Assembly: GCA_938014335.1 (NCBI GenBank)
Contig: CALLRP010000006.1
Span: forward strand, 14,226-78,225
Length of the DNA: 64,000 nt
Direction of reading: 5' to 3'
Origin: an uncultured bacterium
GTDB taxonomy: Bacteria > Hydrogenedentota > Hydrogenedentia > Hydrogenedentales > Hydrogenedentaceae
The notes under the pieces were generated by a model that did not search any database, was not told the origin of the DNA, and saw only the letters and a list, made by a program, of their open reading frames with translations. Shown here piece by piece: positions 12,327-46,204 of this stretch. The translations under genes were made by a program, and so were the position numbers. Each line of letters starts with the position of its first letter. The stretch's first letter is position 1.

Positions 12327-12337
12327 AGGTTTTATTT

Positions 12338-13303
12338 TTATTTAGATGAGAAAAAATTAATTAGTTTTTGCAACAGTGAAAATTTCTTTTCGGGAGATAC
12401 AATTATCATTCTTTCGTGATGAAGCATGTCTTTATGCTCTAATTCCCCAATGATTCGAATGGCAACAGCAGTAATATTGTCAGGGGCTCCCTCTTCAATG
12501 GCCTTATCGACAAGGAAATTTAATCCCTCAGTCAGTTTTTGAGATGATAGTCCTTGTTGGATTTGTTCATCTGTTATCATATTACTCAAGCCATCTGAGC
12601 AGAGAAGAAGGGTATCACCTGTTTTTATTGAAAAAGCATATAAATCGGTCTCAACGATTTCTTTAATTCCTAAAGCTCTTGTTATAAGATTTTTTAACAT
12701 GTGGTTTCGAGCTTCTTCCTCATTAATTAAACCTTCTTTTAACTGCTCTGCCACAATTGAGTGGTCCTCGGTTACTTGTTTTACAGGATAATCATTTCTG
12801 TAAAGGTAAATGCGACTGTCTCCAACCTGAGCGACATATCCAACATCTCCATGAATAACTAATGCAGACAAAGTTGTCCCCATTCCAAAATAAGAGGGAT
12901 CATTTTCACTCAAATTAAAAATATCACTATTAATTTTTTGGATAGCATTTAGTAATATATCTGGAATATGGTTCCCTTCCGATTGAAAATAATAATCAGT
13001 TAGATATGATACAGCCATTTTACTAGCATGTTCTCCAGCTACAGCACCACCCATCCCATCCGCAACAGCAGTTAATATCCCTAATCGTTCCTGATAATTA
13101 TTATCTCTCGCCTTTGAGAAAAGACAATGATCCTCATTATTTGTTCTACGATTCCCAATATCGGAAATCATGCAGACTTCGATAATTTCATTTGTATAAT
13201 CATAGATATATCTTTTTTCACTTTGGGGACCAATTTCTTTCAGAATATTTGTCTGGGGTTCACACACAGGTTTTTCCTTGTTTCTTCTTCTTTTCATATC
13301 CAT
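12338..13303 (-). CDS. PP2C-family Ser/Thr protein phosphatase.
   Basis: Metal-binding motifs are present: ...AVADGMGGAVAGEHAS... and the C-terminal CSDGL. It is 321 aa. Confidence 0.85.
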   Translation of the reverse strand: MDMKRRRNKEKPVCEPQTNILKEIGPQSEKRYIYDYTNEIIEVCMISDIGNRRTNNEDHCLFSKARDNNYQERLGILTAVADGMGGAVAGEHASKMAVSYLTDYYFQSEGNHIPDILLNAIQKINSDIFNLSENDPSYFGMGTTLSALVIHGDVGYVAQVGDSRIYLYRNDYPVKQVTEDHSIVAEQLKEGLINEEEARNHMLKNLITRALGIKEIVETDLYAFSIKTGDTLLLCSDGLSNMITDEQIQQGLSSQKLTEGLNFLVDKAIEEGAPDNITAVAIRIIGELEHKDMLHHERMIIVSPEKKFSLLQKLINFFSSK

Positions 13304-20278: not shown

Positions 20279-22450
20279 CTAATAACCACGGGGAATATTA
20301 TTTAAATACTCGCTGTACCGGCAAAGGTGGACTATAGCTTTTGCCATCTGAGTAGGATTCTGGAAAACGTAAATATTTAATTCCTCAAGTTTTTCTAAAA
20401 CAGGATTGGTATTTTTCCCATGCGAAATGATTGTTGTATCCGAGGCGACAACAATAGGTTTCTGATAAGTATTCATTAATTTTGCAATTGTTTCCGCATC
20501 TTTTAGCTCAAATTGTGTTCCAATTTCTGATAATTTATCCAGACCTAAATTCTTTGCCCGTTCGGAATTTTGAAATCGCACATACGCACTTGCGATATAA
20601 CCTATTCCTAAAATGACGAGAATATCAATCTCATCATCCTGTATTAGGATCTCCATAGATTTTTTGAATAATTCCACATCTGTTCCTGCCACCATATCTA
20701 CGGGATTAGTTCGATTCCACCATTTAGGCATGATTTGGTCTAATTTCTGAAGTATGTTTTCAGATAAGGGAATCACATTCAATCCCGCCTTGCTACAGAC
20801 ATCAGCGGTAATAACCCCCCACCCTCCTCCTTGTGAAAGAATCCCCACATTTCGCCCCCTGGGAAGTGGGACATTAAAAAGTAAATGGGCTGTTTCTACC
20901 GCTTCATAAACATCCTCAGTCAAAATAGCACCCTGTTGAACACATACTCCTTGAAATAGGCGATAATCGGTTGCTAATGCCCCTGTATGTGAAGATGCAG
21001 CACGAGACCCTGCCTGAGTTTTGCCTCCTTTTAATAGGATAACAGGTTTTTTCTTCGTTACTTTTTTTAATTCATTGAAAAATAGACGTATATTTTTGGC
21101 ACTTTCAATATATGAAAAAACTACTTTTGTTTTGAGGTCGTTACCTAAAAAGTTTAGATAATGATAATTTTTTATCACTGCTTCATTTCCGGTGCTTATA
21201 AATCGTGATACTCCTAATTTATGTTGCATTGCCCAACTCATTACAGTGTTCCCAATATTCCCACTTTGAGAAAGTATTCCTAATCCACCGGCTTGAGGGT
21301 ATCTTCCTATCATAGAGCAATATAGTTTCATTGGGTCAGGACTTACTACACCGGCACAATTAGGACCAATTAAGTATAAATTATTTTCTTTTGCCATCTT
21401 TTCCAGTTCTTCCTGTGCAGATTGAGCTTCTTTATCTGCTAACTCTCCGAAACCTGCTGTAATGACTAAGACAACTTGAATTCCCTTTTCAATACACTCT
21501 CGAACGCAGGGCTGAACAGATTGTGGAGGGACAATAATAACCGCTAAGTCCACTTTTTCGGGTAAAGATGAAATAGAAGGATAGCAAGGAATATTTAGGA
21601 CTTCACTTCGTTTTGGGTTAACACCATATATTTTCCCTGTATATCCACCTTCTAAAGTATTGAATAGAACACGAAATCCCCATTTTAGTGACTTGTCTGT
21701 TATTCCCACAATGGCAATACTTTGGGGTTCAAATAATTTTAATAATTTATTGAAATCAATAGATGTATCTTCTGCTTCCAAGTTGTTTGTTGAATCGCTC
21801 CCTGTTATTGCAAGAGCATCTACTGCGATAGCTGTATTGTGATGTATTAAGATGGGATTTAATTCAAATTGTGTAATTTCTGTTTCATTCGATAAAAGAT
21901 TTTCAATAGATTTTATTACTTGAAAAAGTTTTTGTATATCAACAGGAGGGTCACCTCGAAAAGAATAAAAGATTTTATTGCAGCGTAGTTCGTTAATCAT
22001 TTCCTGCAAGTCAATTTCATTTATGGGTGCACAACGAAAGGATACATCTTCAAGAACTTCTACGAGAATACCTCCTATTCCAATATAGACACATATACCA
22101 TATTCGTTATGTTTCATTCCCCCCATGATGAGTTCTCGTTTCCCGTAAATATGTTTTTGTAATAAAAATCCCGATAATTTAAAGTTTTTTGAATTGTCCT
22201 GGATTTCATCAATTGCTTTTAATAAGTGTTCTTTCGATTTAATATCTGTCTTTACTAACCCAAAATCACTTTTGTGACCTATTCCTTCTACAATCCCTTT
22301 TAAGGTTATGGGGTAACCTAATGTTTTTGCAGAGGAAATAATTTCGTTAGTATCACTACACACATGAAAATCAGCCATTGGTATCTTATATTTTTCTAAC
22401 AAAGATAATGTCTGCACTTCAGATAATATTTGAGACAAATTCTCACTCAT
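20279..22450 (-). CDS. ADP-forming acetyl-CoA synthetase (NDP-forming acyl-CoA synthetase, fused alpha/beta domains).
   Basis: It has a CoA-binding Rossmann region (SIAIVGITDKSLKWGF), succinyl-CoA-synthetase-like ligase-CoA domains and a C-terminal ATP-grasp domain. It is 723 aa. Confidence 0.88.
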   Translation of the reverse strand: MSENLSQILSEVQTLSLLEKYKIPMADFHVCSDTNEIISSAKTLGYPITLKGIVEGIGHKSDFGLVKTDIKSKEHLLKAIDEIQDNSKNFKLSGFLLQKHIYGKRELIMGGMKHNEYGICVYIGIGGILVEVLEDVSFRCAPINEIDLQEMINELRCNKIFYSFRGDPPVDIQKLFQVIKSIENLLSNETEITQFELNPILIHHNTAIAVDALAITGSDSTNNLEAEDTSIDFNKLLKLFEPQSIAIVGITDKSLKWGFRVLFNTLEGGYTGKIYGVNPKRSEVLNIPCYPSISSLPEKVDLAVIIVPPQSVQPCVRECIEKGIQVVLVITAGFGELADKEAQSAQEELEKMAKENNLYLIGPNCAGVVSPDPMKLYCSMIGRYPQAGGLGILSQSGNIGNTVMSWAMQHKLGVSRFISTGNEAVIKNYHYLNFLGNDLKTKVVFSYIESAKNIRLFFNELKKVTKKKPVILLKGGKTQAGSRAASSHTGALATDYRLFQGVCVQQGAILTEDVYEAVETAHLLFNVPLPRGRNVGILSQGGGWGVITADVCSKAGLNVIPLSENILQKLDQIMPKWWNRTNPVDMVAGTDVELFKKSMEILIQDDEIDILVILGIGYIASAYVRFQNSERAKNLGLDKLSEIGTQFELKDAETIAKLMNTYQKPIVVASDTTIISHGKNTNPVLEKLEELNIYVFQNPTQMAKAIVHLCRYSEYLNNIPRGY

Positions 22451-22701: not shown

Positions 22702-23007
22702 CTAATGTCTACTTCGTCGTTGACGCCTACGAATTTGCTGTTGTTTATTTTGATTTTGTCCTTTGTTTTCTTCTCCATCTCCTATCTTTTGATAAAATAA
22801 GGCTTCTTTATCGGAAAGTTTTTTGTTTTGTATCATGTTTTTAATCTTTTCAATGTCAGTTACTGTTCCCGTCGTTTTTATGTCTGTAGAAACTGAAGAT
22901 ATTTCTGTTTCTGGTTTTCCCGGTAAAGTCTGATAAATGAAAATAGCCACAAATATAATAGTGTAAAGTATTGAGACTGTTAAGAATATAGCATCATTTT
23001 TTTTCAT
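22702..23007 (-). CDS. Small membrane-anchored protein with an Arg-rich C-terminus (101 aa), last gene of the AmmeMemoRadiSam-associated operon.
   Basis: It has an N-terminal TM helix (IFLTVSILYTIIFVAIFIY) and the C-terminal sequence QQIRRRQRRSRH. Its start overlaps the stop of the upstream 1187-aa gene by 14 nt. Confidence 0.4.
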   Translation of the reverse strand: MKKNDAIFLTVSILYTIIFVAIFIYQTLPGKPETEISSVSTDIKTTGTVTDIEKIKNMIQNKKLSDKEALFYQKIGDGEENKGQNQNKQQQIRRRQRRSRH

Positions 23008-26000
23008 GTTTATAGCACCGATTACATTGAATACAATCTATTTCTTCTATTTTTGAAATTCCGAGGTCACAGTGGTTTGGAAAAGTTCTCTGCCAGAAGA
23101 AAGAAAATATTCGTAGTGATTGAATTAAACTTAAAAATGCCCCTGTGGGACACAGCACCCGGCACCAGAAGCGGTTATATAAAAGGCTTCCGAACAAAAC
23201 AAAAATTCCAAAAATAGTTACGGTATTCGACATATCCAGCGTGAAAAAAGTAAGTAGTGGGTCAATACTTGCCATATTTGTCTCACGCAAAAAGAAATAA
23301 ACTAAAAAGAAAATAAATGCAAATATATACTTAAACTGCCTTGTCGTGTACCACATCTGCTTCGAAGGGGTAATTTTATTATTTATCCAGTTAAACTTAC
23401 TCATTAATTCTGACATGGCACCAAAGGGGCATAAATAACCGCAATATATATTCCCATTTATAAGAACCAGCAGAGGAATCCCTATGGTAAGTATGCAAGA
23501 AATAGATAAAGTAAACCGGAATTTATCAATAGATATTAGTTGAATAATGGAATAAATCCCGTATTGGATATTTAACCAAAAACCCAATACCAACATAACA
23601 GCAATTAACCAGATGATTCGAAGTACATCGTTGTGAAAGAAACGAAACACAATAGATAGGAGAATAAATATGATGAAGATGTAAACAGAATAAGTGGTTT
23701 GTGTGTGGTTTGCATGTGCAAGTTGTTGTATCTCAGAATAGCCCGTGCTTTTATCTTGAATTAATTTAGCAAACTCTTTCCCAGCAAATTGCACAGCCCT
23801 TTTTACTGCATCCGCTGTTGTTGTGGCACCGCTAACGGTATCTATTTCTGCAATCGTTTCGGGTTGAAATATATTTTTCCCTTTATAAAGAAAAAAATAG
23901 TCTTCTACCCGTGACAAATAGTCGGGTGTTTCATTAGATTGAATAACCCTGATATTTTCTATTCTACCTTCTTTGGAAACTTTAACGGCTATATCTATTT
24001 CACCACCGTATCCGATAACCTTAAATAACGAGGCAGTGGAAAAAATATAAAAAGTGTTCTCATTTTGATTTTCATCTTTTTTTGTAAACGAATAAAATCG
24101 TATTTTACGATTATCGGGAAGAGTCAATATCTCAGGTTTAATTTCCTCCCTTTCTGCGAGTTGTTGAGCAATTTGTGTGAAAACATCTTCGGGGAGAGGT
24201 ATTGTAGAACGATAATATATTTCTGTAGAGATAAAGGTTAGTATAAGAATAGGAACCAATGTATATCCAAGTGTTCTACCCCAAAGTGATGAAACACAAA
24301 ACAAAGTTTTTTGGAGTAATGGAATAAATAAAAGGACAAGAATTAGATAGAAAAAAACAATTCCTGCTGAATATTGAAGTCCCCACAGAGGGAGCAATAA
24401 CAATGGAAATACAAAGGCACCTATACCGGCTCCCAAATGATCGCATCCCTCTAAATATACTGCTAAACGAGAGGTGGTTAATTCTTTATCAGAGATTTCG
24501 AGGAATACAGAAAGCAAGAAACCTAACACAAAACCCCATAGAAAGAAAATAGCAAGATATGTGTAAAAATGAATAGATGGTATTTGAAATATGATGATTG
24601 TAAAAAATGCACATGTACAAGACAGGCAAAAGGCAATGAAAAAAGGCAATCGGCTTTTTTTGTTTACATAAAAAAGATTAAAAAAAATGGGACTTATTGA
24701 AAGTCCCAGCATAAAAAGTGAGGATAAAAGCCCCAAATAAGTGGATAATGAGCCATAAGTATATTGAAATTGAATAAAGAGCAGAAGAGAAACTCCCATG
24801 CCCACAAGTCCAATGATAAAAATGGCAAAGCAAGTTTCAGCAATCGAATAAGTGTATTTTTGTATTCTTTTTCGGAGCGACCTCTTTTTATATATCCATC
24901 GAAATAGGATAAAACTCAATGGGAAGCATATAAAAAGAAAAAGAATTATTCTTTTAATGATTATAATTTTTTCTAATAATCCTGAATACCCATGTTTCCA
25001 GAGATAAAAGAGATTACTGTATAAAAATCCAAGATATTTATTTTCAGAATTGATGAGGTAATTGCTGTCGGTAACTTTTTTAATTTCTTCATACCGATTT
25101 TTTTGAAAAATGATTCTATCCGGTGGATACAAGTCTCTCACAAGATTGGGTCTAATTTCGGGCAATTGTTGTGCAATCGTAGTTAGTCGCTGTTCCAGAG
25201 TGGGGACATGCTCACTCAAAGGATGTGTTAAAGAACCCAATAACCATGTTTCCTCCCCGGGTTTCAGCACAGTAACTTTAAATACTTGATGAAAAGTGAA
25301 AAATATAGAGGCTCCAAGGGTTGCAATTTCCCCCCCTAAAAAATTTTCACCTCCTGACATACGAATACCCACTATTCCTCTATCCGCGAGGCAATTCTTC
25401 AACAAGTTAAAAAAACTATCGGTGAGATATTGATTTGAATTTATCGTTTGAGGGTCACCTGTATACACCAAAATAATATCGAATTTTTCATTTGTAGTTG
25501 TTAAAAATAATCGAGGTTCCGTTTGTGGAAATATCAATTTGTTTGAAGTATTTAAAGATTTTTCTTGTAGTAGCGGGATAATTTTTTGGGATAATTCAAA
25601 ATCAAAAGGTATCCACAAAATTTTCTCTATTTCCTTAATTTTTATGAGGTAGGGTAATATATAAATAAAAGGTTCACCAATTAATAGAAAATTTTTTGCA
25701 TCATTTTTTTGAGCAAGGAAGGTGGACAAGAAACGCAAACCATATTCCTGATTTGGGAAATTTAAGGCAGGTTTAAGATTTCTCAACAAAATAAACTGGG
25801 TATTATCAAATCCATATAAATATTCCCCCTTCTGGGTGATAATTTTACCACCTAAATTTTCACTTTTAGTAAGATTTTCCCAGTGTGTTTTATTTTCCCA
25901 TGATTCTAATGTAAATGCTAAAAACAGAAACAATGGCAAAAGAAAAACAACAATAACTTTTTTAAATAAAACATAGTGAGATAGGGAAAAAGAGGAAGTA

Positions 26001-26557
26001 ATTAAAAAAAAGGAAACGAGACAGAAAGGAATCCAGTGAGAAAGACCGAAATATATGCACAATGAGGTAATAAGTCCACCTAACACAGCCCCGAAAGCCT
26101 CATAAGCGTATATAGAGCGAACAATTGTAGAAGGGGTAGGAATATTTTGTGAGTTCGATGTTAAATTTTGCTCCCACCAAAGTGTGCAGTGGGTAAATAA
26201 GAAACCTGTAAGAAAACTTAATCCTGCAGTTGTCAAAGAAGAATACAATACGAGGGTAGGAATATCAAATATTTCATAAGAAGGAATACCAGAAATATAT
26301 CGAGCACTGCGGATAAAAAAATGTGCACATAACCAGGCAGGAATATAAATAAGAGATGTTATTGTTAAGTATTTAAACTGTTTATAAAAAAGACGCCCTA
26401 CAAGGGTTCCGGGGATAATCCAGATAAACCAGAAAAAATAAAGAATACCCAGGGCAAATTCATTTTCTTCAATACAATGAAGGAAATCACGCACAAGGAG
26501 GGCTTGTGCGGTAATCGAAAACGCTCCTAATGCAATGGGTAATAGAAACTTTTTCAC
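22994..26557 (-). CDS. 1187-aa polytopic membrane fusion protein: a spermidine-synthase-like domain with flanking TM bundles, fused to a NosR/NapH-like module (periplasmic FMN-binding domain plus a TM polyferredoxin with two CxxxCP motifs).
   Basis: The aminopropyltransferase-like region is ...DIILVYTGDPQTINSNQYLTDSFFNLLKNCLADRGIVGI. The FMN_bind-like motif is TVSGATTTADAVKRAVQFAG. NapH/NosR-type cluster motifs are CGYLCPFGAM and CRVLCPTGAF, and the C-terminal cysteine cluster is CDLGISKIEEIDCIQCNRC. Its start overlaps the stop of the MEMO-AMMECR1 gene (ATGA-type 4-nt overlap). Confidence 0.75.
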   Translation of the reverse strand: MKKFLLPIALGAFSITAQALLVRDFLHCIEENEFALGILYFFWFIWIIPGTLVGRLFYKQFKYLTITSLIYIPAWLCAHFFIRSARYISGIPSYEIFDIPTLVLYSSLTTAGLSFLTGFLFTHCTLWWEQNLTSNSQNIPTPSTIVRSIYAYEAFGAVLGGLITSLCIYFGLSHWIPFCLVSFFLITSSFSLSHYVLFKKVIVVFLLPLFLFLAFTLESWENKTHWENLTKSENLGGKIITQKGEYLYGFDNTQFILLRNLKPALNFPNQEYGLRFLSTFLAQKNDAKNFLLIGEPFIYILPYLIKIKEIEKILWIPFDFELSQKIIPLLQEKSLNTSNKLIFPQTEPRLFLTTTNEKFDIILVYTGDPQTINSNQYLTDSFFNLLKNCLADRGIVGIRMSGGENFLGGEIATLGASIFFTFHQVFKVTVLKPGEETWLLGSLTHPLSEHVPTLEQRLTTIAQQLPEIRPNLVRDLYPPDRIIFQKNRYEEIKKVTDSNYLINSENKYLGFLYSNLFYLWKHGYSGLLEKIIIIKRIILFLFICFPLSFILFRWIYKKRSLRKRIQKYTYSIAETCFAIFIIGLVGMGVSLLLFIQFQYTYGSLSTYLGLLSSLFMLGLSISPIFFNLFYVNKKSRLPFFIAFCLSCTCAFFTIIIFQIPSIHFYTYLAIFFLWGFVLGFLLSVFLEISDKELTTSRLAVYLEGCDHLGAGIGAFVFPLLLLPLWGLQYSAGIVFFYLILVLLFIPLLQKTLFCVSSLWGRTLGYTLVPILILTFISTEIYYRSTIPLPEDVFTQIAQQLAEREEIKPEILTLPDNRKIRFYSFTKKDENQNENTFYIFSTASLFKVIGYGGEIDIAVKVSKEGRIENIRVIQSNETPDYLSRVEDYFFLYKGKNIFQPETIAEIDTVSGATTTADAVKRAVQFAGKEFAKLIQDKSTGYSEIQQLAHANHTQTTYSVYIFIIFILLSIVFRFFHNDVLRIIWLIAVMLVLGFWLNIQYGIYSIIQLISIDKFRFTLSISCILTIGIPLLVLINGNIYCGYLCPFGAMSELMSKFNWINNKITPSKQMWYTTRQFKYIFAFIFFLVYFFLRETNMASIDPLLTFFTLDMSNTVTIFGIFVLFGSLLYNRFWCRVLCPTGAFLSLIQSLRIFSFFWQRTFPNHCDLGISKIEEIDCIQCNRCYKHEKK

Positions 26558-28119
26558 AATTGCTCTTCGTGGAACACTTCTGCTTCAAAAACTTCAAATT
26601 CTGCACCTTCTTTATAGCCATCCGGAGATAATCCTGCTTTCATTGAAAGGTGTTCTAATGTCTGTTGTAAATTCCAATTTTGTTCTGGGGCTACCTGTGG
26701 TAAAAACAAAGCTTGATAATATCCTTTTTTCATAATTATCCCGTGTTTACCCAATTCAATTTCATTATAATGGTTTATCTTTCGTGGATGTGTAAGGAGG
26801 GATATGTCAATCTTAATCTTAGGCAACTCATCTTTTGTGATAGGGTAGAATCGTGGGTCCTTAAATCCAGCATTATACGCATTTTGTAAAACGGATTTAT
26901 ACATTGGCTTTGTTGCGAAAATTTCACCAATACATCCCCGCAAATCGTCATTTATTTTTAAGGTAACAAATGCGGCGCGAGGTGTTTTCATCGTCTCTGT
27001 TATTGTAATAGGTATTTCATTATCCAAAGGTAATTTGTTATGTTCCAGCACATATTCAAGTGTCCATCGTGCTAATTTTAATAAATCCTTTTTCTCTTCA
27101 GGTGTTAATGTCGTTGAAATATTCATAGATTTCTTTTCTCCTTTCTGCCATATTCCCGTAAAGGCAATACTAAAATAACTTACCGAATTCCGATAATCAT
27201 TTACAATCTCGCCGGATTGTTTATATTCAATAAGTTTGGTTTGTGTATTTTCGGGTAATAAATACATTAAAACTCCAATACCATAAGGACCACAAATAGT
27301 AATCCCTGTTTTTTCAATATAATCATAAAATCCCTTTACATCTCGTTTTTCAATATATTGATAAGCGACCATATCCAATTTTTTAAGATTTTCGGGTATA
27401 TTTTCATTAAAAGGTGTGTAATTGTAATTCGGTCCATAATGAGTAAAATCACTACTGGCAATTACCAATGTCTTCTCATCAATGTAGTTTTTTAATATTC
27501 GAGCTACCCTTTCTGTGGTTTCGATATCCAATCTGCCACAAATTAGAGGAATTAATTTAAATTCTCCTTTAAAATATTGTAACAGTGGTAATTCTATTTC
27601 AACGCTATGTTCTCCTTGTTGTGCTAAAGGAACTTCCTTGAAATATGGATATTTTTTTAATTCTTGTATTGTTTCTGTATCAAGAGGTATCTCGCCCATA
27701 GGTGTTTCATAACAATCAACGGAAGGGAGACTTATGAGATTTTCCAAAGATGCTCTATGGCTTGTCCCTAAAATGATTATCCGAGAATATGTCCCTTTCT
27801 CTGTTGTTTTAATTCCTCTGCATGCAGTTAAACCTGAATACATATAACCCGCATGAGGTAAAATAAGTCCGATTACATGTTCAATAAGCTCCCCATCTGC
27901 TTTATTAAACATTTCTGAGATTTGTTGTTTTAATTTTTCTGGATTTGCATCATACCATTGACCTGCAATTAAAGATTGATAAACTTTTTTAGACTCCCTA
28001 TGATTTTCTTGACTTAAAGATAAATTATCCCCACATGCAAATGGAAGAGTGACGATAAACAATAGAAAAAGAGTAATATTTGAATAATTTCTCATCCAAT
28101 AACCCCTTCTTTTTTTCAT
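26554..28119 (-). CDS. Fused AmmeMemoRadiSam system protein B (MEMO1-like) and protein A (AMMECR1 domain), with a signal-peptide-like N-terminus.
   Basis: The MEMO1 motif is GLILPHAGYMYSG, with later His/Asp-containing segments. The C-terminal AMMECR1 motif is PRAAFVTLKINDDLRGCIGEIF. The N-terminus is MKKRRGYWMRNYSNITLFLLFIVTLPFACG. It lies directly downstream of the cognate radical SAM gene. Confidence 0.85.
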   Translation of the reverse strand: MKKRRGYWMRNYSNITLFLLFIVTLPFACGDNLSLSQENHRESKKVYQSLIAGQWYDANPEKLKQQISEMFNKADGELIEHVIGLILPHAGYMYSGLTACRGIKTTEKGTYSRIIILGTSHRASLENLISLPSVDCYETPMGEIPLDTETIQELKKYPYFKEVPLAQQGEHSVEIELPLLQYFKGEFKLIPLICGRLDIETTERVARILKNYIDEKTLVIASSDFTHYGPNYNYTPFNENIPENLKKLDMVAYQYIEKRDVKGFYDYIEKTGITICGPYGIGVLMYLLPENTQTKLIEYKQSGEIVNDYRNSVSYFSIAFTGIWQKGEKKSMNISTTLTPEEKKDLLKLARWTLEYVLEHNKLPLDNEIPITITETMKTPRAAFVTLKINDDLRGCIGEIFATKPMYKSVLQNAYNAGFKDPRFYPITKDELPKIKIDISLLTHPRKINHYNEIELGKHGIIMKKGYYQALFLPQVAPEQNWNLQQTLEHLSMKAGLSPDGYKEGAEFEVFEAEVFHEEQL

Positions 28120-28138
28120 AACATCATTATATTAAATT

Positions 28139-28324
28139 TTAACCTGCCCATGGAGAGGATTTCGTTTGAGAAAGGCCGAAATTGTTTTTGTTTTTTGGCA
28201 ATTTTTTTTTGTGTAATAACGGTATTGCATAAGTCTGCCGAACCAAGGATGGTTTTTTTATGCCATATTTGGCAACTACCACGGCCAGAATAGATGATAA
28301 AAATTTTCTCCGATTTATTGCCAT
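28139..28324 (-). CDS. Possible 61-aa ORF with a textbook twin-arginine (Tat) signal, lying between the AmmeMemoRadiSam rSAM and MEMO-AMMECR1 genes. It is a doubtful gene.
   Basis: The sequence MAINRRKFLSSILAVVVAKYG matches the S/T-RRxFLK consensus followed by a hydrophobic core. It overlaps the rSAM stop by 10 nt. It contains a homopolymer run (A9-10), so a frameshift artefact cannot be excluded. A competing ORF, 28116..28406, overlaps it in another frame. Confidence 0.3.
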   Translation of the reverse strand: MAINRRKFLSSILAVVVAKYGIKKPSLVRQTYAIPLLHKKKLPKNKNNFGLSQTKSSPWAG

Positions 28325-29292
28325 ATCCCGTATATCTCCTTGTTACATTTGGGACATTTTCCATTTGAAATATTGTTTTGGAGAATGTTATATCCATATC
28401 TTTCAATCAATAAAATTTTACAGAATGGACAGTAAGTATTTGAACTTTCACGGTGTATAATATTGCCAATATATACGAATTGCAATCCCTCATTTTGTGC
28501 AATTTGGCGAGCTTTCAGAAGCGTCTCTAAAGGAGTAGGGAAGAGGTGGGTCATTTTATAACGGGGATAAAACTGGGAAAAATGGAGTGGAGTATCCTTC
28601 CCCAAATTTTTCGCTATCCATGCAGATAATTGTTGTAAGTCTTCATCTTTATCATTCAAGGTGGGAATGACTAAATTCGTGACTTCAAGTTCAACGCCTG
28701 CATTTTTAGTCAGTTCTAAAGTTTTTAAAACAGGTTTTAACGAGCCATCACATACGGTTCTGTAAAATTCCTCTGAAAAACCTTTTAGGTCTATATTAGC
28801 GGAGTGAACAAAAGGTAGCAACCTTTTGTAGGGTTCTTCATTAATATATCCTGCGGTAACAAGAACATTTTTTAGTCCTTTTCCCGCGGATATTTTACAA
28901 CACTCATAAGTATACTCATAATAAGCCAATGGTTCGGTGTAGGTATAAGCGATAGAATGGCTCTTGTACTGAATTGCTAATGCTGTAATCTTTTCAGGGG
29001 CTATAAATTCAGTTTCATATTGATAAGGCTCCGCCTGTGATATTTCCCAATTCTGGCAATTTTTGCAGTGGAGATTACAGCCCACAGTAGCGAGGGATAA
29101 AATAGGTGTTCCAGGCAAAAAATGATAAAGCGGTTTTTTTTCAACGGGGTCAATATGAATAGAACAAGGATAACCATAAGTTACTGCATATAATTTTCCA
29201 TCTATATTAACCCGAATACGACACTCCCCTTTTTGTCCGTTCTCCAGCACACAATAACGGGGACAAAGTTCACATTTGACTAATGTAGTCAT
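28315..29292 (-). CDS. AmmeMemoRadiSam system radical SAM enzyme (PFL-activase-like).
   Basis: The N-terminal Cys pair is CELCPRYC...C. The radical-SAM motif is CNLHCKNCQNWEIS. It is 325 aa and has the conserved C-terminal CPFCKILL / CPKCNKEI zinc-ribbon-like cysteines. Confidence 0.85.
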   Translation of the reverse strand: MTTLVKCELCPRYCVLENGQKGECRIRVNIDGKLYAVTYGYPCSIHIDPVEKKPLYHFLPGTPILSLATVGCNLHCKNCQNWEISQAEPYQYETEFIAPEKITALAIQYKSHSIAYTYTEPLAYYEYTYECCKISAGKGLKNVLVTAGYINEEPYKRLLPFVHSANIDLKGFSEEFYRTVCDGSLKPVLKTLELTKNAGVELEVTNLVIPTLNDKDEDLQQLSAWIAKNLGKDTPLHFSQFYPRYKMTHLFPTPLETLLKARQIAQNEGLQFVYIGNIIHRESSNTYCPFCKILLIERYGYNILQNNISNGKCPKCNKEIYGIWQ

Positions 29293-29509
29293 TGGTATTC
29301 TACCATTGGTGTTTGTCTTTCAATAGTATTATAACGAGAAAAATACAAACAAAGGGAACTTTTTAATTAATTTTGGTGTTAATTAATGAAAATATAAAAA
29401 AATTAAAATATAAAACATTAAATATTAAAAATAATTTGATATATAAATAATTTTATGATAAAATTGTTTATAATTATTAAATAACGATACATTTATAAAG
29501 GGTTTATTG

Positions 29510-29980
29510 ATGAAAGATTACTCATCTGAAGCAAATGAAATTTTTAATACGATTCAGGTGATTCAACGCTGGATGCATGACCGTTTTCACTGCAATTTTG
29601 ATGAAGAGAGAAGGATGAAGATAGGACATGACCTCACAATGCCTCAATTTCATATGTTAGTCACAATTAAACAATTTGAGCCACTGAAATTGAAAGAATT
29701 AGCAGAATATCTTCATGTCTCTCCGCCTGCTGCAAGTTTAATGTTAGACCGCTTGGTTGAATTAGGTTTGGTAATTCGAGAACAATCTGCAGAAGACCGT
29801 CGAGAAATTCAGATACGACTAACTCCAGAGGCGAGTGAAACTTTAAAGTGGCATGAGAGGCAGATTTTATCGGGAATAAAAAAATTATTGCAAGGATTAG
29901 GAGATGAAACCGCCTCTCAATGGGTTGATGTGTACAAAAAGATAAGACAATATATAATTTCTGTTCAGAATAATAAATGA
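29510..29980 (+). CDS. MarR-family transcriptional regulator.
   Basis: The winged-HTH region is LTMPQFHMLVTIKQFEPLKLKELAEYLHVSPPAASLMLDRLVELGLVIREQSAEDRREIQIRLT. It is divergent from the AmmeMemoRadiSam operon and upstream of the RND efflux genes. Confidence 0.85.
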   Translation: MKDYSSEANEIFNTIQVIQRWMHDRFHCNFDEERRMKIGHDLTMPQFHMLVTIKQFEPLKLKELAEYLHVSPPAASLMLDRLVELGLVIREQSAEDRREIQIRLTPEASETLKWHERQILSGIKKLLQGLGDETASQWVDVYKKIRQYIISVQNNK

Positions 29981-29998
29981 ATTCAACGAGGAGGTTTT

Positions 29999-31348
29999 AT
30001 GAGTGATAATGAGATAAAGAGATATATAACAATTACAAAATTAGCATCTTTTTTTGTTGCTATTCTGGTTTTACTATCGGGAGTGATTCTTTTTATTTTC
30101 TTTTCATCGTTTCGAAAACCTCCAGCTCAAGCGGAACAAGAAGAAAGGCCTATACCTGTTGAAGTGATACAAGTCCAGCCCGAAGATATCCCGATTGTTT
30201 TAACTGGTTTTGGTGAAGTCCGAACATTGGCGACAGTCCCTATATCCTCAGAAATTTCAGGTCGTATAATTCGCATCCATCCAAGACTTGAGGCAGGGGA
30301 AGTGATTTCTGCGGGAGAAGTCCTTTTTGAAATTGACCCCAGCGATTATCAGGTGAAACTTCAATCTGCACAAGCAGGGTTAGAACAGGCAAAACATGTA
30401 TTAAAAAGGCTACAAGAACAATTTGCCTCTGACCAGGGAAGGCTTAAGACTTTAGAAAGGACAAAAGACCTTGCCTATTCAGAATTTCAACGAGTGAAAC
30501 AATTGTTTGAAAAAGAGAAGGTGGGAACACAATCTAATGTTGAACAAACAGAGCGAACATACAATCAAACATTAGATGCTTTTAATCAATTAGCCCAGTC
30601 AGTAGAATTATATCCGCTACGAATTAAAGAAGCAGAAGAATCTGTGAAGACAGCAGAAGCACAATTAGCACAAGCAGAAATTAATTTAACACGGACACAG
30701 GTAAAAGCACTTTTTCATGCGAGAATAAAATCGGTTAATTTGGAAGTAGGACAATATGTAAATCCCGGGATGGTCGTGATGACACTTTCCGATGATTCTA
30801 TTTTAGAAATATCCATTCCACTCGATGCTAAACAGGCAATACAATGGCTCCCATTTCAGAAAGATGATATGAATATTGATTCTGCATGGTTCCCTCCCTT
30901 AGAACCTAAAGAATGTGAAATTCTGTGGACTGAAGATAAAGAAAATCATAAGTGGAAGGGAGTACTTCATCGTATTGAAAGATATGACGAAAAAACAAGA
31001 ACAATCTATGCAGTTGTTCGAGTAGAAAAGGGAAATATTTATTCCCAGTCAGAAGACAAGATACCATTAGTTCAAGGTATGTTTTGTCAGGTAAAAATTC
31101 CAGGAAAAACACTAATAGGTATCTATCGTTTACCTGATACTGCAGTAAGTTTTGAAGGGACTGTTTATGTTGCAGAAGATAATCGTCTACGTTCCATTCA
31201 AGTAGAAAGGTTATATATTCAAGGTGATGAGGTTTTTGTTAGTGGGTTAAATCCAGGAACTATAGTTATTACGACACGGTTGATTAATCCAATGGGAAAT
31301 TCATTGTTGGAAATTAAAAAAAGGGGCGATAAGGAAACTGTTTTATGA
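29999..31348 (+). CDS. RND efflux periplasmic adaptor (membrane fusion protein, HlyD family).
   Basis: It has an N-terminal TM anchor, coiled-coil hairpin, lipoyl and beta-barrel segments. A GAGGAGG RBS is present. Confidence 0.88.
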   Translation: MSDNEIKRYITITKLASFFVAILVLLSGVILFIFFSSFRKPPAQAEQEERPIPVEVIQVQPEDIPIVLTGFGEVRTLATVPISSEISGRIIRIHPRLEAGEVISAGEVLFEIDPSDYQVKLQSAQAGLEQAKHVLKRLQEQFASDQGRLKTLERTKDLAYSEFQRVKQLFEKEKVGTQSNVEQTERTYNQTLDAFNQLAQSVELYPLRIKEAEESVKTAEAQLAQAEINLTRTQVKALFHARIKSVNLEVGQYVNPGMVVMTLSDDSILEISIPLDAKQAIQWLPFQKDDMNIDSAWFPPLEPKECEILWTEDKENHKWKGVLHRIERYDEKTRTIYAVVRVEKGNIYSQSEDKIPLVQGMFCQVKIPGKTLIGIYRLPDTAVSFEGTVYVAEDNRLRSIQVERLYIQGDEVFVSGLNPGTIVITTRLINPMGNSLLEIKKRGDKETVL

Positions 31349-34300
31349 ATCAGTTTTTAGGATATTTCGTGGGAAACCGTGTTTTTGCGAATATATTAAC
31401 GGCTGTCATACTTATTGCGGGACTCATTTCGCTAATGTTAATGCGAAGAGAACTCTTCCCTGAGTTTTCGTTAGATATGATAACTGTCCAAGTATTCTAT
31501 CCTGGTACTGACCCTGAAGAAGTAGAAGAAGGGATATGCCGAAAGATTGAAGAGGCTTTAGATACTGTTGAAGGGATAAAACGCTATACGACAGTCGCTT
31601 CTGAAAACATGGGAATGGCAAGTATTGAGGTAATGGATGGTTATGATTTGAATAAAGTCTATGACAAAGTTCGCAACGCTATAGATTCCATTTCTACATT
31701 TCCTAAAGATGCAGAAAAACCGATAACAAATGAGGTAACTATCCGTCGAGAAGTTATTCAAGTGGCATTATCCGGAAATTTGCCTGATAGAACTTTGAAA
31801 GAATGGGCAGAACAGGTAAAAGATGAATTACAAGCATTACCTGAGATATCACAAGTGTTTATTTTTGGTGCAAAACAATATGAGATAGGTATAGAAATTT
31901 CTGAAGAAAGACTCCAGAAATTAGGGTTAACTTTTTCTCAAGTAGCATCAGCAGTTCGTTCCGGAAATTTAAACATTTCGGGTGGACTTATTCGTTCCAA
32001 AGGAGCTGAAATACGAGTTAGAACTATAGGTAGGAAATACTATGCAGATGAATTAGCAAAGATAGTAGTCCTTGCAAAACCCACAGGTGAAGTAATTACA
32101 TTAGATCAGGTAGCAGAAATACGCGATGATTTTAATGAAGACCCATTAGAAGCAGATTACAATGGTGAAAAATCAGTTCTAATTGCATGTTTTAAGACTC
32201 AGGAAGAAGACGATATTGCAATATCTGATGCAGTTCATAAGTATGTAAAAGCGAAACAAAAGCAGTTGCCACCGGGAGTGAAAATTTCTTTGTGGAACGA
32301 TAGAGCTCGACTAATCCGTGCACGATTAAATCTGCTTGAAGTTAATGGGATTCAAGGATTGATCATCGTTATTACACTCTTATTATTGTTGATGAATGCT
32401 CGTTTATCATTTTTCGTTACTTTAGGTATTCCTATATCTTTTGCAGGTGCCCTATGTATTTTATATCTTAACGGAAACACATTAAATATGATGTCGTTAT
32501 TTGGGTTGATTATGGTGTTGGGAATGTTGGTTGATGACGCTATTGTAGTGGGCGAAGCCATATATTACCATCGCCAACGCGGTTTACCCCCTATGAAGGC
32601 AGCTTTAGCAGGAGTTGAAGAAGTGGGTCTCCCTGTAATTGGTGCTGTTACTACAACTATTGCCGCATTTCTACCTTTAATGTTTGTCAGTGGGATAATG
32701 GGAAAATTTATTCGTATTCTACCTATTGTTGTTATTTCTGCTTTATCTGTTTCTTTATATGAATCTCTCTTCCTTCTACCCGCACATCTTAATGACCTCC
32801 CCGATTTATCTCATACTATTTCAAATTCAGATAATCGAAGACATCCTCTGAAAAAATTAAGATGGTTTTTTAGTGATTTCCTTGATTCCTTCATAAACAA
32901 AGTATACCTTCCGTTCTTAAATAATATGTTGAAACATAGATATATTTCGTTAAGTGCATTTATTGCTGTATTATTAACAGTCTTTGGACTTGTCCGTGGA
33001 CAGATTATTAAATTTGAGGTCTTCTCTGAAGTAGATGGGGATTATCTAATGGCACAGGTAGAATTCCCAGCGGGGACACCCTTTCATGTCACAAAAGAGG
33101 CAGTAAAGAAAATGGAAGAGGCACTTACAAGATTGACAGAAAAAACGACTACTATGAGTGGTGAACCTATGGTTCAAAATGTGTATAGCGTTGTTGGACA
33201 GAGTAGCAGTGGTTTTTCTGCTCAAGGAGGTAGTAATGTTGGTGAAATAAGAGTAGAATTATTACCCACAGAGCGGAGGGGAATTCATGCCAAAAAGATA
33301 AGTTCCATGTGGGCAAAAGAAACAGGCGAAATTCCAGGAGCATTAAGACAGAAATATGATATCAGTGGAGGAGGTCCCCGAGGAACAGGCATTGAACTTT
33401 GGTTGAGGAGTGAAAACCTCAACGATGTGGTTCAGGCAAGTCAAGAAATAAAGGAAAAACTTCGGACCTATGACGGCGTATACCAGATTGAAGATGATTA
33501 TAGACCTGCAAAGATTGAAGCACGGTTTTACTTAAAGCCCGAAGCTCAAACATTGGGGATTACTCTTGATTCTTTAGGTAGACAATTAGCAAGTGGTTTT
33601 TTCGGCGAAGAGGCAGTCCGAATTCAAAGAGGTAGAGATGATATTCGTATCCGAGTTCGTTATCCGCGTGAAGAACGTAGTTATCTTTCTATACTAAATC
33701 AAGTTCGTATTCGAACAAATCAGGGGTATGAAGTTCCTTTATTTGCAGTAGCAGATGTAGATTATTCCCCGGGTTTCGCATCTATAACCCGCGTAGATGG
33801 TATGAGAAGAGTAGTTGTAACCGCAGATATTGATTCCTCAAAAGCCAATTCACAGGAGATTATTGGAGATTTAACAAATACATTCTTGCCTTCTCTTCAA
33901 AAGAAATATCCGGGATTAATCTGGTCATTTGAAGGACCTCAACAGAGTAGTAGAGATGCTCTTAATTCATTAAAAGTGGGTTTCCCAATTGCACTATTAG
34001 TGATATTTTTAATCATATCATCCATTTTTCATTCCTATTCCCAACCTATATTGATTATGCTTACAATACCTTTTGGTGTAGTAGGAGCCTTAATAGGACA
34101 TTTAATCTTTGGTCAAATTGTAACGCTTATGAGTTTATTTGGTATTGTAGCACTTGCTGGGGTTGTTGTTAATGATGCCATTGTGTTTATAGATTGTTTC
34201 AATGCTAACCTCGGAGCGGGTAGTGATTTTATTTCTGCTATTATTCAAGCAGGGAAGAGAAGATTCCGTGCTATATTTTTAACTTCAACTACCACTTTTG

Positions 34301-34557
34301 GCGGTTTGATTGGGTTACTTTTTACACGTGATATGCAAGCACAGTTTTTAAAACCGATGGCTATTTCTTTAGCAATAGGCTTGATATTTTCCACAACAGT
34401 AACTCTATTATTTATACCCACCATTATTGGAGTATTAAATGATATTCGTAGAGTATTGTATATAATACGGAAACGAAGAATTCCCAAACCTGAAGAGGTA
34501 GAGCCTGTATTTGCAATGTTAGAACAAAAACGACAATTAGAAAACGGTTCTTTATAA
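31345..34557 (+). CDS. RND efflux permease (AcrB/HAE1-like, 1070 aa).
   Basis: It has a 12-TM topology with two large periplasmic loops. The conserved TM4 region is ...GLIMVLGMLVDDAIVVGEAI. It overlaps the MFP gene with ATGA coupling. Confidence 0.93.
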   Translation: MNQFLGYFVGNRVFANILTAVILIAGLISLMLMRRELFPEFSLDMITVQVFYPGTDPEEVEEGICRKIEEALDTVEGIKRYTTVASENMGMASIEVMDGYDLNKVYDKVRNAIDSISTFPKDAEKPITNEVTIRREVIQVALSGNLPDRTLKEWAEQVKDELQALPEISQVFIFGAKQYEIGIEISEERLQKLGLTFSQVASAVRSGNLNISGGLIRSKGAEIRVRTIGRKYYADELAKIVVLAKPTGEVITLDQVAEIRDDFNEDPLEADYNGEKSVLIACFKTQEEDDIAISDAVHKYVKAKQKQLPPGVKISLWNDRARLIRARLNLLEVNGIQGLIIVITLLLLLMNARLSFFVTLGIPISFAGALCILYLNGNTLNMMSLFGLIMVLGMLVDDAIVVGEAIYYHRQRGLPPMKAALAGVEEVGLPVIGAVTTTIAAFLPLMFVSGIMGKFIRILPIVVISALSVSLYESLFLLPAHLNDLPDLSHTISNSDNRRHPLKKLRWFFSDFLDSFINKVYLPFLNNMLKHRYISLSAFIAVLLTVFGLVRGQIIKFEVFSEVDGDYLMAQVEFPAGTPFHVTKEAVKKMEEALTRLTEKTTTMSGEPMVQNVYSVVGQSSSGFSAQGGSNVGEIRVELLPTERRGIHAKKISSMWAKETGEIPGALRQKYDISGGGPRGTGIELWLRSENLNDVVQASQEIKEKLRTYDGVYQIEDDYRPAKIEARFYLKPEAQTLGITLDSLGRQLASGFFGEEAVRIQRGRDDIRIRVRYPREERSYLSILNQVRIRTNQGYEVPLFAVADVDYSPGFASITRVDGMRRVVVTADIDSSKANSQEIIGDLTNTFLPSLQKKYPGLIWSFEGPQQSSRDALNSLKVGFPIALLVIFLIISSIFHSYSQPILIMLTIPFGVVGALIGHLIFGQIVTLMSLFGIVALAGVVVNDAIVFIDCFNANLGAGSDFISAIIQAGKRRFRAIFLTSTTTFGGLIGLLFTRDMQAQFLKPMAISLAIGLIFSTTVTLLFIPTIIGVLNDIRRVLYIIRKRRIPKPEEVEPVFAMLEQKRQLENGSL

Positions 34558-34585
34558 CATATAGATTTTGGAGGAAAAGTGAAAA

Positions 34586-35185
34586 ATGTTTGAACCTTTT
34601 TTAATTCGATGGCGAAGTTTCTATCATGGATTGAAATTTGCTCAAAAAGGCAAAAAATGTCGTATCCAAGGTAAGCATTTTACAATCGAGGGACATGTAG
34701 AATGCGGGGATTATTGTAGATTCCGTGATTATATAATACTCCGTACACATAAAAATGGAAAAATTATAATGGGGACGCACTCTGTTTTAAGTTATTATAC
34801 AATTTTAGAATCTACTACATTAATCCAGATTGGAAGTAACACTGCTGTGGCAGAGTTTACGGTAATTCGTGACACACATCATGTGTTTTGGGGAACCAAA
34901 GAACATTTTGCCCTAACTCCACATATTGCGAAACCGATCATAATAGGAGATAATGTCCTTATTGGTAGTCGCTGTTATATCCATCCGGGTGTAGAAATTG
35001 GAGATGGTGCGATAATCGGTGTAGGAAGTGTTCTTACTGAAGATACAAAAGTAGGACCTTTGGAGATCTGGGCAGGAGTCCCTGCAAGAAAAGTAGGACA
35101 TCGATTAGAAAATGTCCCACCTAAAAAATTACAACAAACAGAGGAGTTAATAAAACAATATGGAATACGCAAATTCCGATATTAA
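34586..35185 (+). CDS. Hexapeptide-repeat (LbH) acyl/acetyltransferase embedded in the efflux operon.
   Basis: Left-handed beta-helix repeats are present: IGDNVLIGSRCYIHPGVEIGDGAIIGVGSVLT. A GGAGG RBS is present. Confidence 0.8.
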   Translation: MFEPFLIRWRSFYHGLKFAQKGKKCRIQGKHFTIEGHVECGDYCRFRDYIILRTHKNGKIIMGTHSVLSYYTILESTTLIQIGSNTAVAEFTVIRDTHHVFWGTKEHFALTPHIAKPIIIGDNVLIGSRCYIHPGVEIGDGAIIGVGSVLTEDTKVGPLEIWAGVPARKVGHRLENVPPKKLQQTEELIKQYGIRKFRY

Positions 35186-46129: not shown

Positions 46130-46204
46130 GACAACCCTTATGTGGGTTGCGCACTCTTTTTAGATTATTCATCATTTCTCCATAAAATACATAAGGAAAA
46201 ATGT

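Follow-up and report, generated by a model that had tools for sequence, protein, structure and literature searches.

The 64-kb stretch of contig CALLRP010000006.1 analysed here, from an uncultured bacterium of the Hydrogenedentaceae and hereafter called the window, carries on its minus strand a cassette of five genes in which the AmmeMemoRadiSam system, namely a radical S-adenosylmethionine (SAM) enzyme (rSAM) together with Memo and AMMECR1, is joined to a giant membrane protein. This gene arrangement is found in other genomes far beyond chance, and the cassette is almost certainly one functional unit. There is slightly better than an even chance that it builds an extracytoplasmic AmmeMemoRadiSam machine, in which the rSAM would hitch-hike through the twin-arginine translocation (Tat) pathway and dock on a membrane protein giving it electrons and possibly S-adenosylmethionine (AdoMet). 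Conserved Memo and AMMECR1 proteins occur in organisms ranging from archaea to humans; MEMO1 has been linked to the migration of cancer cells, and AMMECR1 to a contiguous-gene syndrome. To our knowledge no biochemical function is established for either, and it is chiefly through the prokaryotic three-gene system that the two can be approached.

The initial annotation, made from the letters alone, had described five minus-strand genes with adjacent or overlapping ends, and all five were confirmed at 22702-29292, their neighbouring ends overlapping or leaving a 19 nt gap. In the 5' to 3' direction the order is rSAM, Tat mini-protein, Memo-AMMECR1, giant protein and tail protein, the giant gene having a GTG start that overlaps the stop of the Memo-AMMECR1 gene. 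The guanine-plus-cytosine content is about 35%, and promoter and terminator scans of the window gave counts not above those of shuffled sequences. The genes, with the two domains of the fusion, are the following:

28315..29292, minus strand: AmmeMemoRadiSam radical SAM enzyme (rSAM), 325 aa (TIGR04337)
28139..28324, minus strand: Tat mini-protein, 61 aa (open reading frame, ORF, with conserved homologues)
26554..28119, minus strand: Memo-AMMECR1 fusion, 521 aa (TIGR04336, TIGR04335, PF01875, PF01871)
27166-27969, minus strand: Memo domain of the fusion, aa 51-318
26572-27081, minus strand: AMMECR1 domain of the fusion, aa 347-516
22994..26557, minus strand: giant membrane protein, 1187 aa, 20 transmembrane (TM) helices (PF04205, PF12801, AlphaFold 2 (AF2) model, hydropathy)
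22702..23007, minus strand: single-pass TM 'tail' protein, 101 aa (ORF; homologues fused to the giant protein)

Relatives bear labels of this analysis (loci L001-L091; proteins P0020, P0022 and P0164). The scan covered one genome per species and gave about 25 more homologues of the fused giant protein, complete or cut by a contig end; ORFs in the loci were classed by profile searches, and a locus with enough upstream sequence was taken as informative. The five-gene order is kept in 21 of the 22 informative loci, spread over at least five phyla, with loci from Hydrogenedentota, Planctomycetota (Pirellulales, Sedimentisphaerales, Phycisphaerae), Kiritimatiellae, Thermodesulfobacteriota, Nitrospirales and a 'delta' metagenome-assembled genome. 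Giant-protein homologues that share as little as 27-31% identity stand in the same order of five genes, amid flanking genes that are wholly different. At least 150 representatives (clusters at 50% identity) of the full-length fused protein of about 1.2 kaa came out of an exhaustive profile search, and 16 homologues align continuously along the protein. In the Thermodesulfovibrionales its two halves are separate genes: locus L037 has a 684-aa gene resembling a major facilitator superfamily (MFS) transporter combined with a spermidine synthase (SpeE)-like domain, followed by a 405-aa NosR-like gene, and this split cassette adds the tail, the rSAM, a 39-aa Tat peptide and a lipoprotein Memo-AMMECR1. 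Two further loci (L033, L034) show rSAM, a 40-aa Tat peptide, a lipoprotein Memo-AMMECR1 and a 406-aa NosR-like gene. The giant ORF is thus no assembly or frameshift chimera, the objection that had been raised beforehand, and the operonic linkage proposed for the window holds across phyla in both fused and unfused form. In L037 (7355-16008) two MacB/FtsX-type permease genes (404 and 410 aa) lie between the tail and rSAM genes and are a candidate further envelope-related partner.

It is very improbable, given this conservation, that the giant protein is a generic polyamine or MFS exporter with a respiratory NapH-like unit that merely shares an operon with the other genes. Order and overlaps are kept in the 21 loci despite entirely different flanks, the tail bears a motif derived from the rSAM and fuses to the giant protein, and a SpeE-like TM protein is independently linked to a Tat-bearing rSAM and an exported AMMECR1 in a sister clade described below. 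Such an exporter would be in keeping with the modular use of flavinylated NapH-like modules with many partners, mostly of unassigned identity (PMC8238504), with the occurrence of 'fused MFS/spermidine synthase' proteins elsewhere, e.g., P0022 in a polysaccharide locus, and with a Lentisphaerae locus (L011, 7863-11921) that has the giant protein alone. This last homologue, 1352 aa long with the tail motif fused, is the sole exception to the cassette order, no AmmeMemoRadiSam genes being present within about 8 kb upstream; its partners may sit elsewhere in that genome, possibly as the type with the Tat signal in cis.

An association of Memo, AMMECR1 and a radical SAM enzyme, including a Memo-AMMECR1 fusion, was noted earlier (Balaji and Aravind, 2007; PMC2034487). 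The assignment of the trio in the window, first suggested by motifs, is borne out by all three family models: the rSAM matches TIGR04337 with 377.6 bits (cutoff 220), and the fusion matches TIGR04336 with 228.9 bits (cutoff 26) and TIGR04335 with 166.5 bits (cutoff 99), in addition to PF01875 (206 bits) and PF01871 (171 bits). The HAGYMYSG, ICG, LRGCIG and DPRF motifs of the fusion are intact, and the solved homologues of its domains are MEMO1 and MM0484/PH0010. Scores above cutoff, kept catalytic motifs and adjacent genes are what the window system has in common with canonical AmmeMemoRadiSam, which is regarded as cytoplasmic and has been proposed to take part in the modification of RNA bases. 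The differences are three: Memo-AMMECR1 has an export signal or anchor; the rSAM is truncated at its N-terminus, a Tat signal and a strand being found in two extra genes; and the 1187-aa MFS/SpeE-like/NosR-like protein is an obligatory fourth partner. The signal or anchor lies at aa ~17-29 (LFLLFIVTLPFAC), and a hydrophobic segment precedes the Memo domain in all 24 fusions compared (24/24), several with lipoboxes and others resembling signal anchors; several of these N-termini include RR. In L025 (6342-7986) the Memo-AMMECR1 gene consists of two overlapping ORFs, possibly through a frameshift or an assembly error.

The window rSAM has the cluster motif CNLHCKNC (CxxxCxxC type) and no signal peptide; it begins 6 residues before the first Cys and matches TIGR04337 from model position 12 on. 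The 'EA.[FY]Y' strand found at the N-terminus of the family is missing from it and from every rSAM of its clade, these enzymes and those of Thermodesulfovibrio starting about 4 residues before the first Cys, whereas canonical signal-less rSAMs keep the N-terminal segment of the model (MKEAKYY... in L038 and L043). The latter two loci (L038:7863-14819 and L043:2958-9227; Elusimicrobia, Endomicrobia) also have a 444-453-aa FMN_bind/NapH-like gene 4-6 kb from the rSAM gene, which was not counted as linkage, since yebC and ruvCAB lie between. Across phyla the identity is 53-64% for the rSAM, 40-51% for Memo-AMMECR1 and 27-31% for the giant protein, and the higher conservation of the rSAM suggests a strong constraint on it, e.g., multiple protein contacts.

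Enzymes with the Tat signal in cis surfaced only in a sister clade, through the gene context of P0020, a protein of 778 aa with MFS plus SpeE-like layout that is flanked by a lipoprotein AMMECR1 (TIGR04335) and by a TIGR04337 rSAM preceded by its own Tat signal. The sister system was located as follows:

L088:5953-11336; L090:9001-16018; L091:9001-16140 (strand n/a): sister system, Lentisphaerae, Kiritimatiellae, Verrucomicrobia

The rSAM of L088 carries the N-terminal Tat signal LSRRGFLRAAGLAGAALAAPPAAAS, and a canonical SRR.FL signal stands upstream of the first Cys motif in 98 of its 120 nearest relatives (Lentisphaerae, Kiritimatiellae, Verrucomicrobia), the sequences without it looking like truncated gene calls; the RR.FL signal is absent from all 120 nearest relatives of the window rSAM. 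Straight after the Tat signal the in-cis enzymes show (L)HEA(R/L)(F/Y)YE.L....V.C.LCP. In an AF2 model of a sister rSAM that starts at this N-strand, the first ten residues have a predicted local distance difference test score (pLDDT) of 94 and form short strands beside the strand of the first Cys; the segment is ordered and therefore, according to the model, an integral part of the rSAM fold. Compared with these sequences, the window-clade rSAM has lost two N-terminal elements, the Tat signal and the 'EA.FY' strand, and both reappear as separate genes, i.e., the mini-protein and the tail. These two genes are present in every locus whose rSAM lacks the elements in cis and absent from the three in-cis loci.

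The initial annotation had pointed to a tiny ORF with a Tat signal, which proved to be a 61-aa ORF with conserved homologues. Its product (MAINRRKFLSSILAVVVA...SSPWAG) consists of a twin-arginine signal (start MAINRRKFLSS), an h-region and a basic tail ending in PWAG-COOH; there is a 10-nt overlap of this ATG ORF with the rSAM stop, and AGGAG lies 10 nt upstream. A 96-aa TTG ORF in another frame (28116-28406) was rejected as the tiny gene, as it has no conserved counterpart, unlike the 61-aa ORF. Each of the 21 related loci, and 3 Thermodesulfovibrio loci besides, has a homologue placed between its rSAM gene and its Memo-AMMECR1 gene; the family from these 24 loci shows a near-consensus (S/T)RR.F(L/I), an h-region of moderate hydrophobicity and a tail that is short and basic. 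Among 21 aligned mini-proteins RR.F and a W-x-G C-terminus are invariant and YPG is nearly so; the Thermodesulfovibrio forms (39-41 aa) keep the signal (RR.F) and a Trp near the C-terminus and have lost YPG and the terminal Gly. Neither the mini-protein nor the tail matched a Pfam or NCBIfam family, and the negative result with Pfam TAT_signal carries no weight, that model giving 21 bits even on a bona fide in-cis Tat signal. The C-terminus of the mini-protein (PG.W[AS]G; L008, L025, L029) resembles that of rSAMs ((I)(P/Y/H)G(V/I)W(Q/A); IPGVWAG in L088), and the like ends at 28139-28150 (mini-protein) and 28315-28335 (rSAM) of the window may reflect mimicry, a duplication of the rSAM 3'-end or chance.

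With RRKFL and an h-region on the mini-protein and no signal on the rSAM, only one of the two partners bears a twin-arginine signal, as in Tat hitch-hiking, for which hydrogenase HybO/HybC and DmsAB are precedents (Rodrigue et al., 1999, as cited in PMC10924467). As in those cases, a signal-less Fe-S protein is encoded beside a partner with a canonical twin-arginine signal; the window pair differs in that the carrier would be a mini-protein of 40-65 aa with almost no mature domain and the passenger an rSAM. Since sister rSAMs carry Tat signals in cis, export of the rSAM itself seems reasonably probable. The invariant C-terminal Trp and Gly and near-invariant YPG of the mini-protein, together with the translational coupling of its gene to that of the rSAM, would also suit a precursor of a cofactor or of a peptide akin to peptides synthesized by the ribosome and modified after translation (RiPPs), modified at YPG/W-x-G by a cytoplasmic rSAM, exported by Tat and then used or processed by a periplasmic Memo-AMMECR1 with electrons from the NosR-like module. 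Pyruvate formate-lyase (PFL) activase, the nearest fold to the rSAM, acts on a peptide loop, and NapH/MauN-type proteins go with periplasmic peptide-quinone cofactor systems. We nevertheless consider such a precursor unlikely: in the sister clade the Tat signal is part of the rSAM and a peptide of this kind is absent, the Thermodesulfovibrio peptides keep about 15 residues past the h-region without YPG or terminal Gly, and the periplasmic copy of the rSAM N-strand is left unexplained. Nor does the rSAM have a SPASM or RiPP-recognition domain; the window enzyme gave no match to a SPASM family or RiPP-recognition domain, its only hit of this kind being a partial one of 19 bits to the core of a sactipeptide maturase.

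The second extra gene encodes the tail, predicted to have a TM anchor with its N-terminus inside, followed by a periplasmic segment with LSDKEALFYQKI (aa 64-75, nt 22783-22818), which copies the strand at the N-terminus of canonical TIGR04337 enzymes. Compared with the N-terminus of the Tat-in-cis rSAMs, the tail motif gave an hhalign probability of 94% (E 8.5e-8, 14 columns). Tails, whether free or fused to the giant protein or to the flavin transferase ApbE, show LSD(K/R/H)EA.(F/Y)Y..L after the TM helix, as illustrated by REALHYERLE in the tail of L004 and HEALHYERLK in the rSAM P0164; those of Thermodesulfovibrio bear RRFYYERV. In many homologues the tail is fused to the C-terminus of the giant protein. 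The motif is predicted to face the side of the FMN domain and ApbE, i.e., the periplasm, since its TM helix comes after the cytoplasmic Cys4 tail of the giant protein and since the fusion to ApbE occurs.

This placement bears on the possibility that the rSAM stays in the cytoplasm. The closest solved fold for a relative of the window-clade rSAM is PFL activase (TM-score 0.79 over about 256 residues), and the PFL-activating enzyme (PFL-AE) is also the closest secondary NCBIfam match of the window rSAM (PFLA 51 bits, cutoff 232). Hence the enzyme could be pictured as a PFL-AE-like activase of Memo-AMMECR1, acting, e.g., on a conserved Cys of AMMECR1 before or during export; the Fe-S face that the NapH-like module turns to the cytoplasm may then be its docking site and electron donor, with the mini-protein and the tail as structural subunits. 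The RR in several Memo-AMMECR1 N-termini is compatible with the export of a folded protein, and the cytoplasmic Cys4 and CX3CP clusters could serve the rSAM, but the Tat signal in cis on 98 of 120 sister enzymes and the tail motif lying on the FMN/ApbE side rather than the cytoplasmic one (from its TM position and the ApbE fusion in L006) make this quite unlikely. The window rSAM further differs from PFL-AE in having no glycyl-radical enzyme partner and in bearing an additional Cys4 motif at the N-terminus and CxxC...CxxC at the C-terminus.

The giant protein, towards which the exported rSAM would be drawn, can be divided into five parts, all encoded on the minus strand:

25871..26557, minus strand: aa 1-229, MFS N-domain (TM1-6) and outward TM7
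24977..25870, minus strand: aa 230-527, spermidine-synthase-fold domain, predicted periplasmic
24206..24976, minus strand: aa 528-784, TM8 (inward), MFS C-domain (TM9-14) and TM15 (outward)
23708..24205, minus strand: aa 785-950, periplasmic FMN_bind domain (PF04205, RnfG match)
22994..23707, minus strand: aa 951-1187, NapH/NosR-like 5-TM module and Cys4 tail (PF12801; TIGR02163 and NF046105 partial)

The layout comes from hydropathy and from an AF2 model built on 16 homologues (pLDDT 78, predicted TM-score 0.76), which has 7 helices (1-229), a beta/Rossmann region (230-527), 8 helices (528-784), the FMN_bind domain (about 800-935) and 5 helices. By sequence and predicted structure the protein is an evolutionary fusion of an MFS-fold, SpeE-like protein with a putatively flavinylated NapH/NosR-like conduit.

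For the C-terminal half, the NosR/NapH-like layout read from motifs in the initial annotation was upheld at the level of domains. The flavin mononucleotide (FMN) domain matches PF04205 with 55.5 bits (aa 849-925) and RnfG at 7e-11 by family profile, and contains a predicted ApbE flavinylation motif, D906-x3-S-G-A-T912, whose D906, G910, A911 and T912 are invariant in 16 homologues. Fer4_5 (PF12801) matches twice, with 47.2 bits; two CX3CP motifs (C1039/C1043 and C1132/C1136) are likewise invariant in the 16, and a single cytoplasmic C-x11-C-x2-C-x2-C motif closes the protein. The specific models match weakly: the NosR model NF046105 gave 47.6 bits against a cutoff of 1000, with just model positions 412-626 matched, and the NapH/MauN model TIGR02163 gave 38.5 bits against 213. 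The module and NosR/NapH proteins have in common a periplasmic FMN_bind domain with an ApbE motif, a pair of CX3CP motifs in TM helices and a Cys cluster in the cytoplasm; by the predicted topology both CX3CP motifs and also the Cys4 tail are cytoplasmic, as in NapH and NosR (PMC8238504). The module has one Cys4 motif where NosR has two ferredoxin-type 4Fe-4S motifs; it stands without a nos, nap or pce partner, with the rSAM system instead, and is fused behind an MFS/SpeE-like protein. Judged by its sequence, it therefore appears to belong to the flavinylated NapH-like class, being neither NosR nor NapH by score, Fe-S content or gene context. It agrees with the operational definition of Meheust et al. 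(2021), with PF12801 and FMN_bind in one protein and ApbE adjacent or fused in relatives (PMC8238504). An ApbE gene directly follows the giant gene in L018 (~11947-12516) and L030 (~11950-12477) and is found close by in L031 and L035; in L006/L007 (L006:13069-14244) ApbE and the tail protein form one fused product, and no ApbE gene is present within the 64-kb window. NapH-like proteins flavinylated by ApbE are extracytosolic electron conduits (PMC8238504), and electrons reaching the rSAM or Memo through the FMN domain is a somewhat favoured prospect.

The spermidine-synthase-like domain of the N-terminal half, also part of the initial annotation, was upheld by profile and by fold, the family profile matching Thermus SpeE at E 2e-12 and aa 230-527 having in the AF2 model the N-terminal beta domain and Rossmann domain of the SpeE fold. 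By single sequence it stayed under the cutoff (Spermine_synth PF01564 17.9 bits, cutoff 22.9; TIGR00417 24.4, cutoff 249.6). The top 50 Foldseek matches of the giant protein in the PDB are all spermidine or thermospermine synthases (about 275 residues, TM-score 0.6-0.71), and superposing the AF2 model on spermidine synthases over about 275 residues gave TM-scores of 0.65-0.71. The Asp of GGGDG and the acidic residue of beta2 are lost, the motif reading IGEPFI / xGxG, and a family-specific SGGEN.LGGE motif is retained; sequence and model thus describe a domain that is SpeE-like in fold and not a demonstrable spermidine synthase.

The TM bundles on either side have the fold of a 12-TM MFS protein, with DHA1-like fold matches and a match to the TM region of PRK03612 over aa 576-772; the two bundles align weakly and collinearly with each other (hhalign E 0.0075), having an E..(D)..G...G motif in common. 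An MFS-type TM region with a spermidine-synthase-fold domain is also the composition of 'fused MFS/spermidine synthase' proteins (NF037959) and of membrane SpeE (PRK03612), and P0020 and L037 reach 116-152 bits with PRK03612, every score staying below its cutoff. NF037959, however, gave no match to the window protein at E<=0.01, and the separate homologues score 27 and 33.8 bits against its cutoff of 40; in the window protein, moreover, two extra helices connect the SpeE-like domain to the MFS halves between which it is inserted, and the residues binding decarboxylated AdoMet are degenerate. MFS halves begin and finish in the cytoplasm; therefore TM7 should exit, the SpeE-fold domain lie in the periplasm, TM8 re-enter and TM15 exit to the FMN domain. 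The positive-inside rule agrees with this topology, e.g., for the KKRSLRKRIQK loop after TM8, which would be inside. An extracytoplasmic location is very probable for Memo-AMMECR1 and for the FMN and SpeE-like domains, in line with the earlier proposal that the system acts at the membrane or its periplasmic face.

Taken together, the proposed machine would work as follows. An ancestral polypeptide of Tat signal, N-strand and rSAM core would have been split into three genes in the window clade. The mini-protein would bind the folded, cluster-loaded rSAM and take it across the membrane via Tat, and the membrane-anchored strand of the tail would complete the rSAM fold by strand complementation and tether the enzyme beside the FMN domain. 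The NapH/NosR-like conduit would pass electrons from a cytoplasmic or quinol donor to the covalent FMN, and the FMN domain, as a tethered flavodoxin, would provide the electron for reductive AdoMet cleavage; flavodoxin is the electron donor for cytoplasmic rSAMs. The anchored Memo-AMMECR1 would perform the remaining chemistry, rSAM, Memo and AMMECR1 together modifying an envelope or membrane substrate. The MFS/SpeE-like half may export or present AdoMet, or remove 5'-deoxyadenosine and methionine; alternatively, AdoMet may move bound to the rSAM and be regenerated. That this half handles AdoMet is doubtful: the idea comes from the need of an exported rSAM for AdoMet and from the MFS/SpeE-like TM protein being the one partner that goes with exported rSAMs in both clades, and it fits the DHA1-like matches and a SpeE ancestry that binds AdoMet derivatives. 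The membrane location and a cyclase-like neighbour in the sister clade give a hint of an isoprenoid or envelope lipid substrate. The complete scheme, a first periplasmic rSAM system with Tat export in trans, docking by the N-strand, reduction by FMN, AdoMet supply through the MFS/SpeE-like half, and Memo and AMMECR1 acting on an envelope substrate (isoprenoid lipid?), is tentative, with something less than an even chance of being right in all its parts.

Several points weigh against this proposal. We know of no radical SAM enzyme that works outside the cytoplasm and of no occurrence of AdoMet in the periplasm, and a menaquinol-level donor is too weak to reduce an rSAM cluster without the membrane potential. 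With a mature part of just 15-35 aa, the mini-protein is an unusually small carrier for hitch-hiking. Nucleotide binding by the SpeE-like domain is uncertain, as the residues with which true SpeE binds decarboxylated AdoMet are lost, and these degenerate motifs weaken the AdoMet idea. The AF2 model shows TM13 and TM14 as one long helix, so that the parity of TM helices is drawn from hydropathy, the MFS fold and the positive-inside rule. No NosR-like gene was found near the sister-clade loci, hence the electron conduit is not universal for exported rSAMs, and the giant protein of L011 stands without the trio. The export, the docking and the transfer of electrons are each an inference from sequence.

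No linkage of AmmeMemoRadiSam to a NosR-like or SpeE-like module was met in the accessible literature, as the initial annotation had supposed; nor did that literature, which did not cover Burroughs et al. (2019), yield a description of a rSAM-giant protein linkage, of a Tat-targeted AmmeMemoRadiSam or of a periplasmic, exported or secreted radical SAM enzyme. It held no link of Memo and AMMECR1 with isoprenoids, and there 'AmmeMemoRadiSam' appeared in passing only. The variant adds constraints on the function of the system, namely possible chemistry at the outer face, a dedicated electron feed and a tie to an MFS/SpeE-fold protein, which argue against an exclusive role on RNA bases and towards a substrate in the envelope or membrane. 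If the rSAM is exported, radical SAM chemistry would no longer be confined to the cytoplasm, and AdoMet or electrons would have to be supplied to the periplasm; there is a substantial chance that the cassette stands for such a categorically new kind of chemistry. If the Tat signal and the beta-strand do act in trans, one protein would have been divided among three genes for the sake of targeting and docking, which would be unusual. Uncultured anaerobes carry the family in abundance, with the fusion clusters counted above and thousands of rSAM relatives.

As to the sister system, it comprises the Tat-in-cis rSAM, an MFS/SpeE-like protein of 778-824 aa, an exported AMMECR1 without Memo, and a secreted protein resembling the C-terminal part of squalene-hopene cyclase. 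Beyond the locus of P0020, two further sister-clade loci pair a Tat-bearing rSAM with a 789-824-aa MFS/SpeE-like protein, and one of them also has the exported AMMECR1 and the cyclase-like protein; mini-protein, tail and NosR-like gene were found in neither. A Pyr_redox_2 flavoprotein is encoded in the sister locus L090.

Other features of the window lie around or away from the cassette:

29507-36707, plus strand: MarR regulator, then a resistance-nodulation-division (RND) efflux set, divergent and upstream of the cassette
20279-22450, minus strand: ADP-forming acyl-CoA (acetyl-CoA) synthetase, 723 aa (ATP-grasp_5, CoA_binding and Succ_CoA_lig domains)
46142-49975, plus strand: 1277-aa protein

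The efflux set consists of an HlyD-like adaptor, a 1070-aa pump, a hexapeptide acyltransferase and an OEP outer-membrane factor, and, as synteny extends only to the close relative L001, the MarR/RND genes are probably unrelated to the cassette. The synthetase gene, 251 nt downstream of the cassette on the same strand, is kept only in Hydrogenedentota relatives. Both it and the MarR/RND genes were rejected as members of the system, L001, the only relative with synteny, being 70% identical. The 1277-aa protein is made up almost wholly of tetratricopeptide (TPR) repeats.

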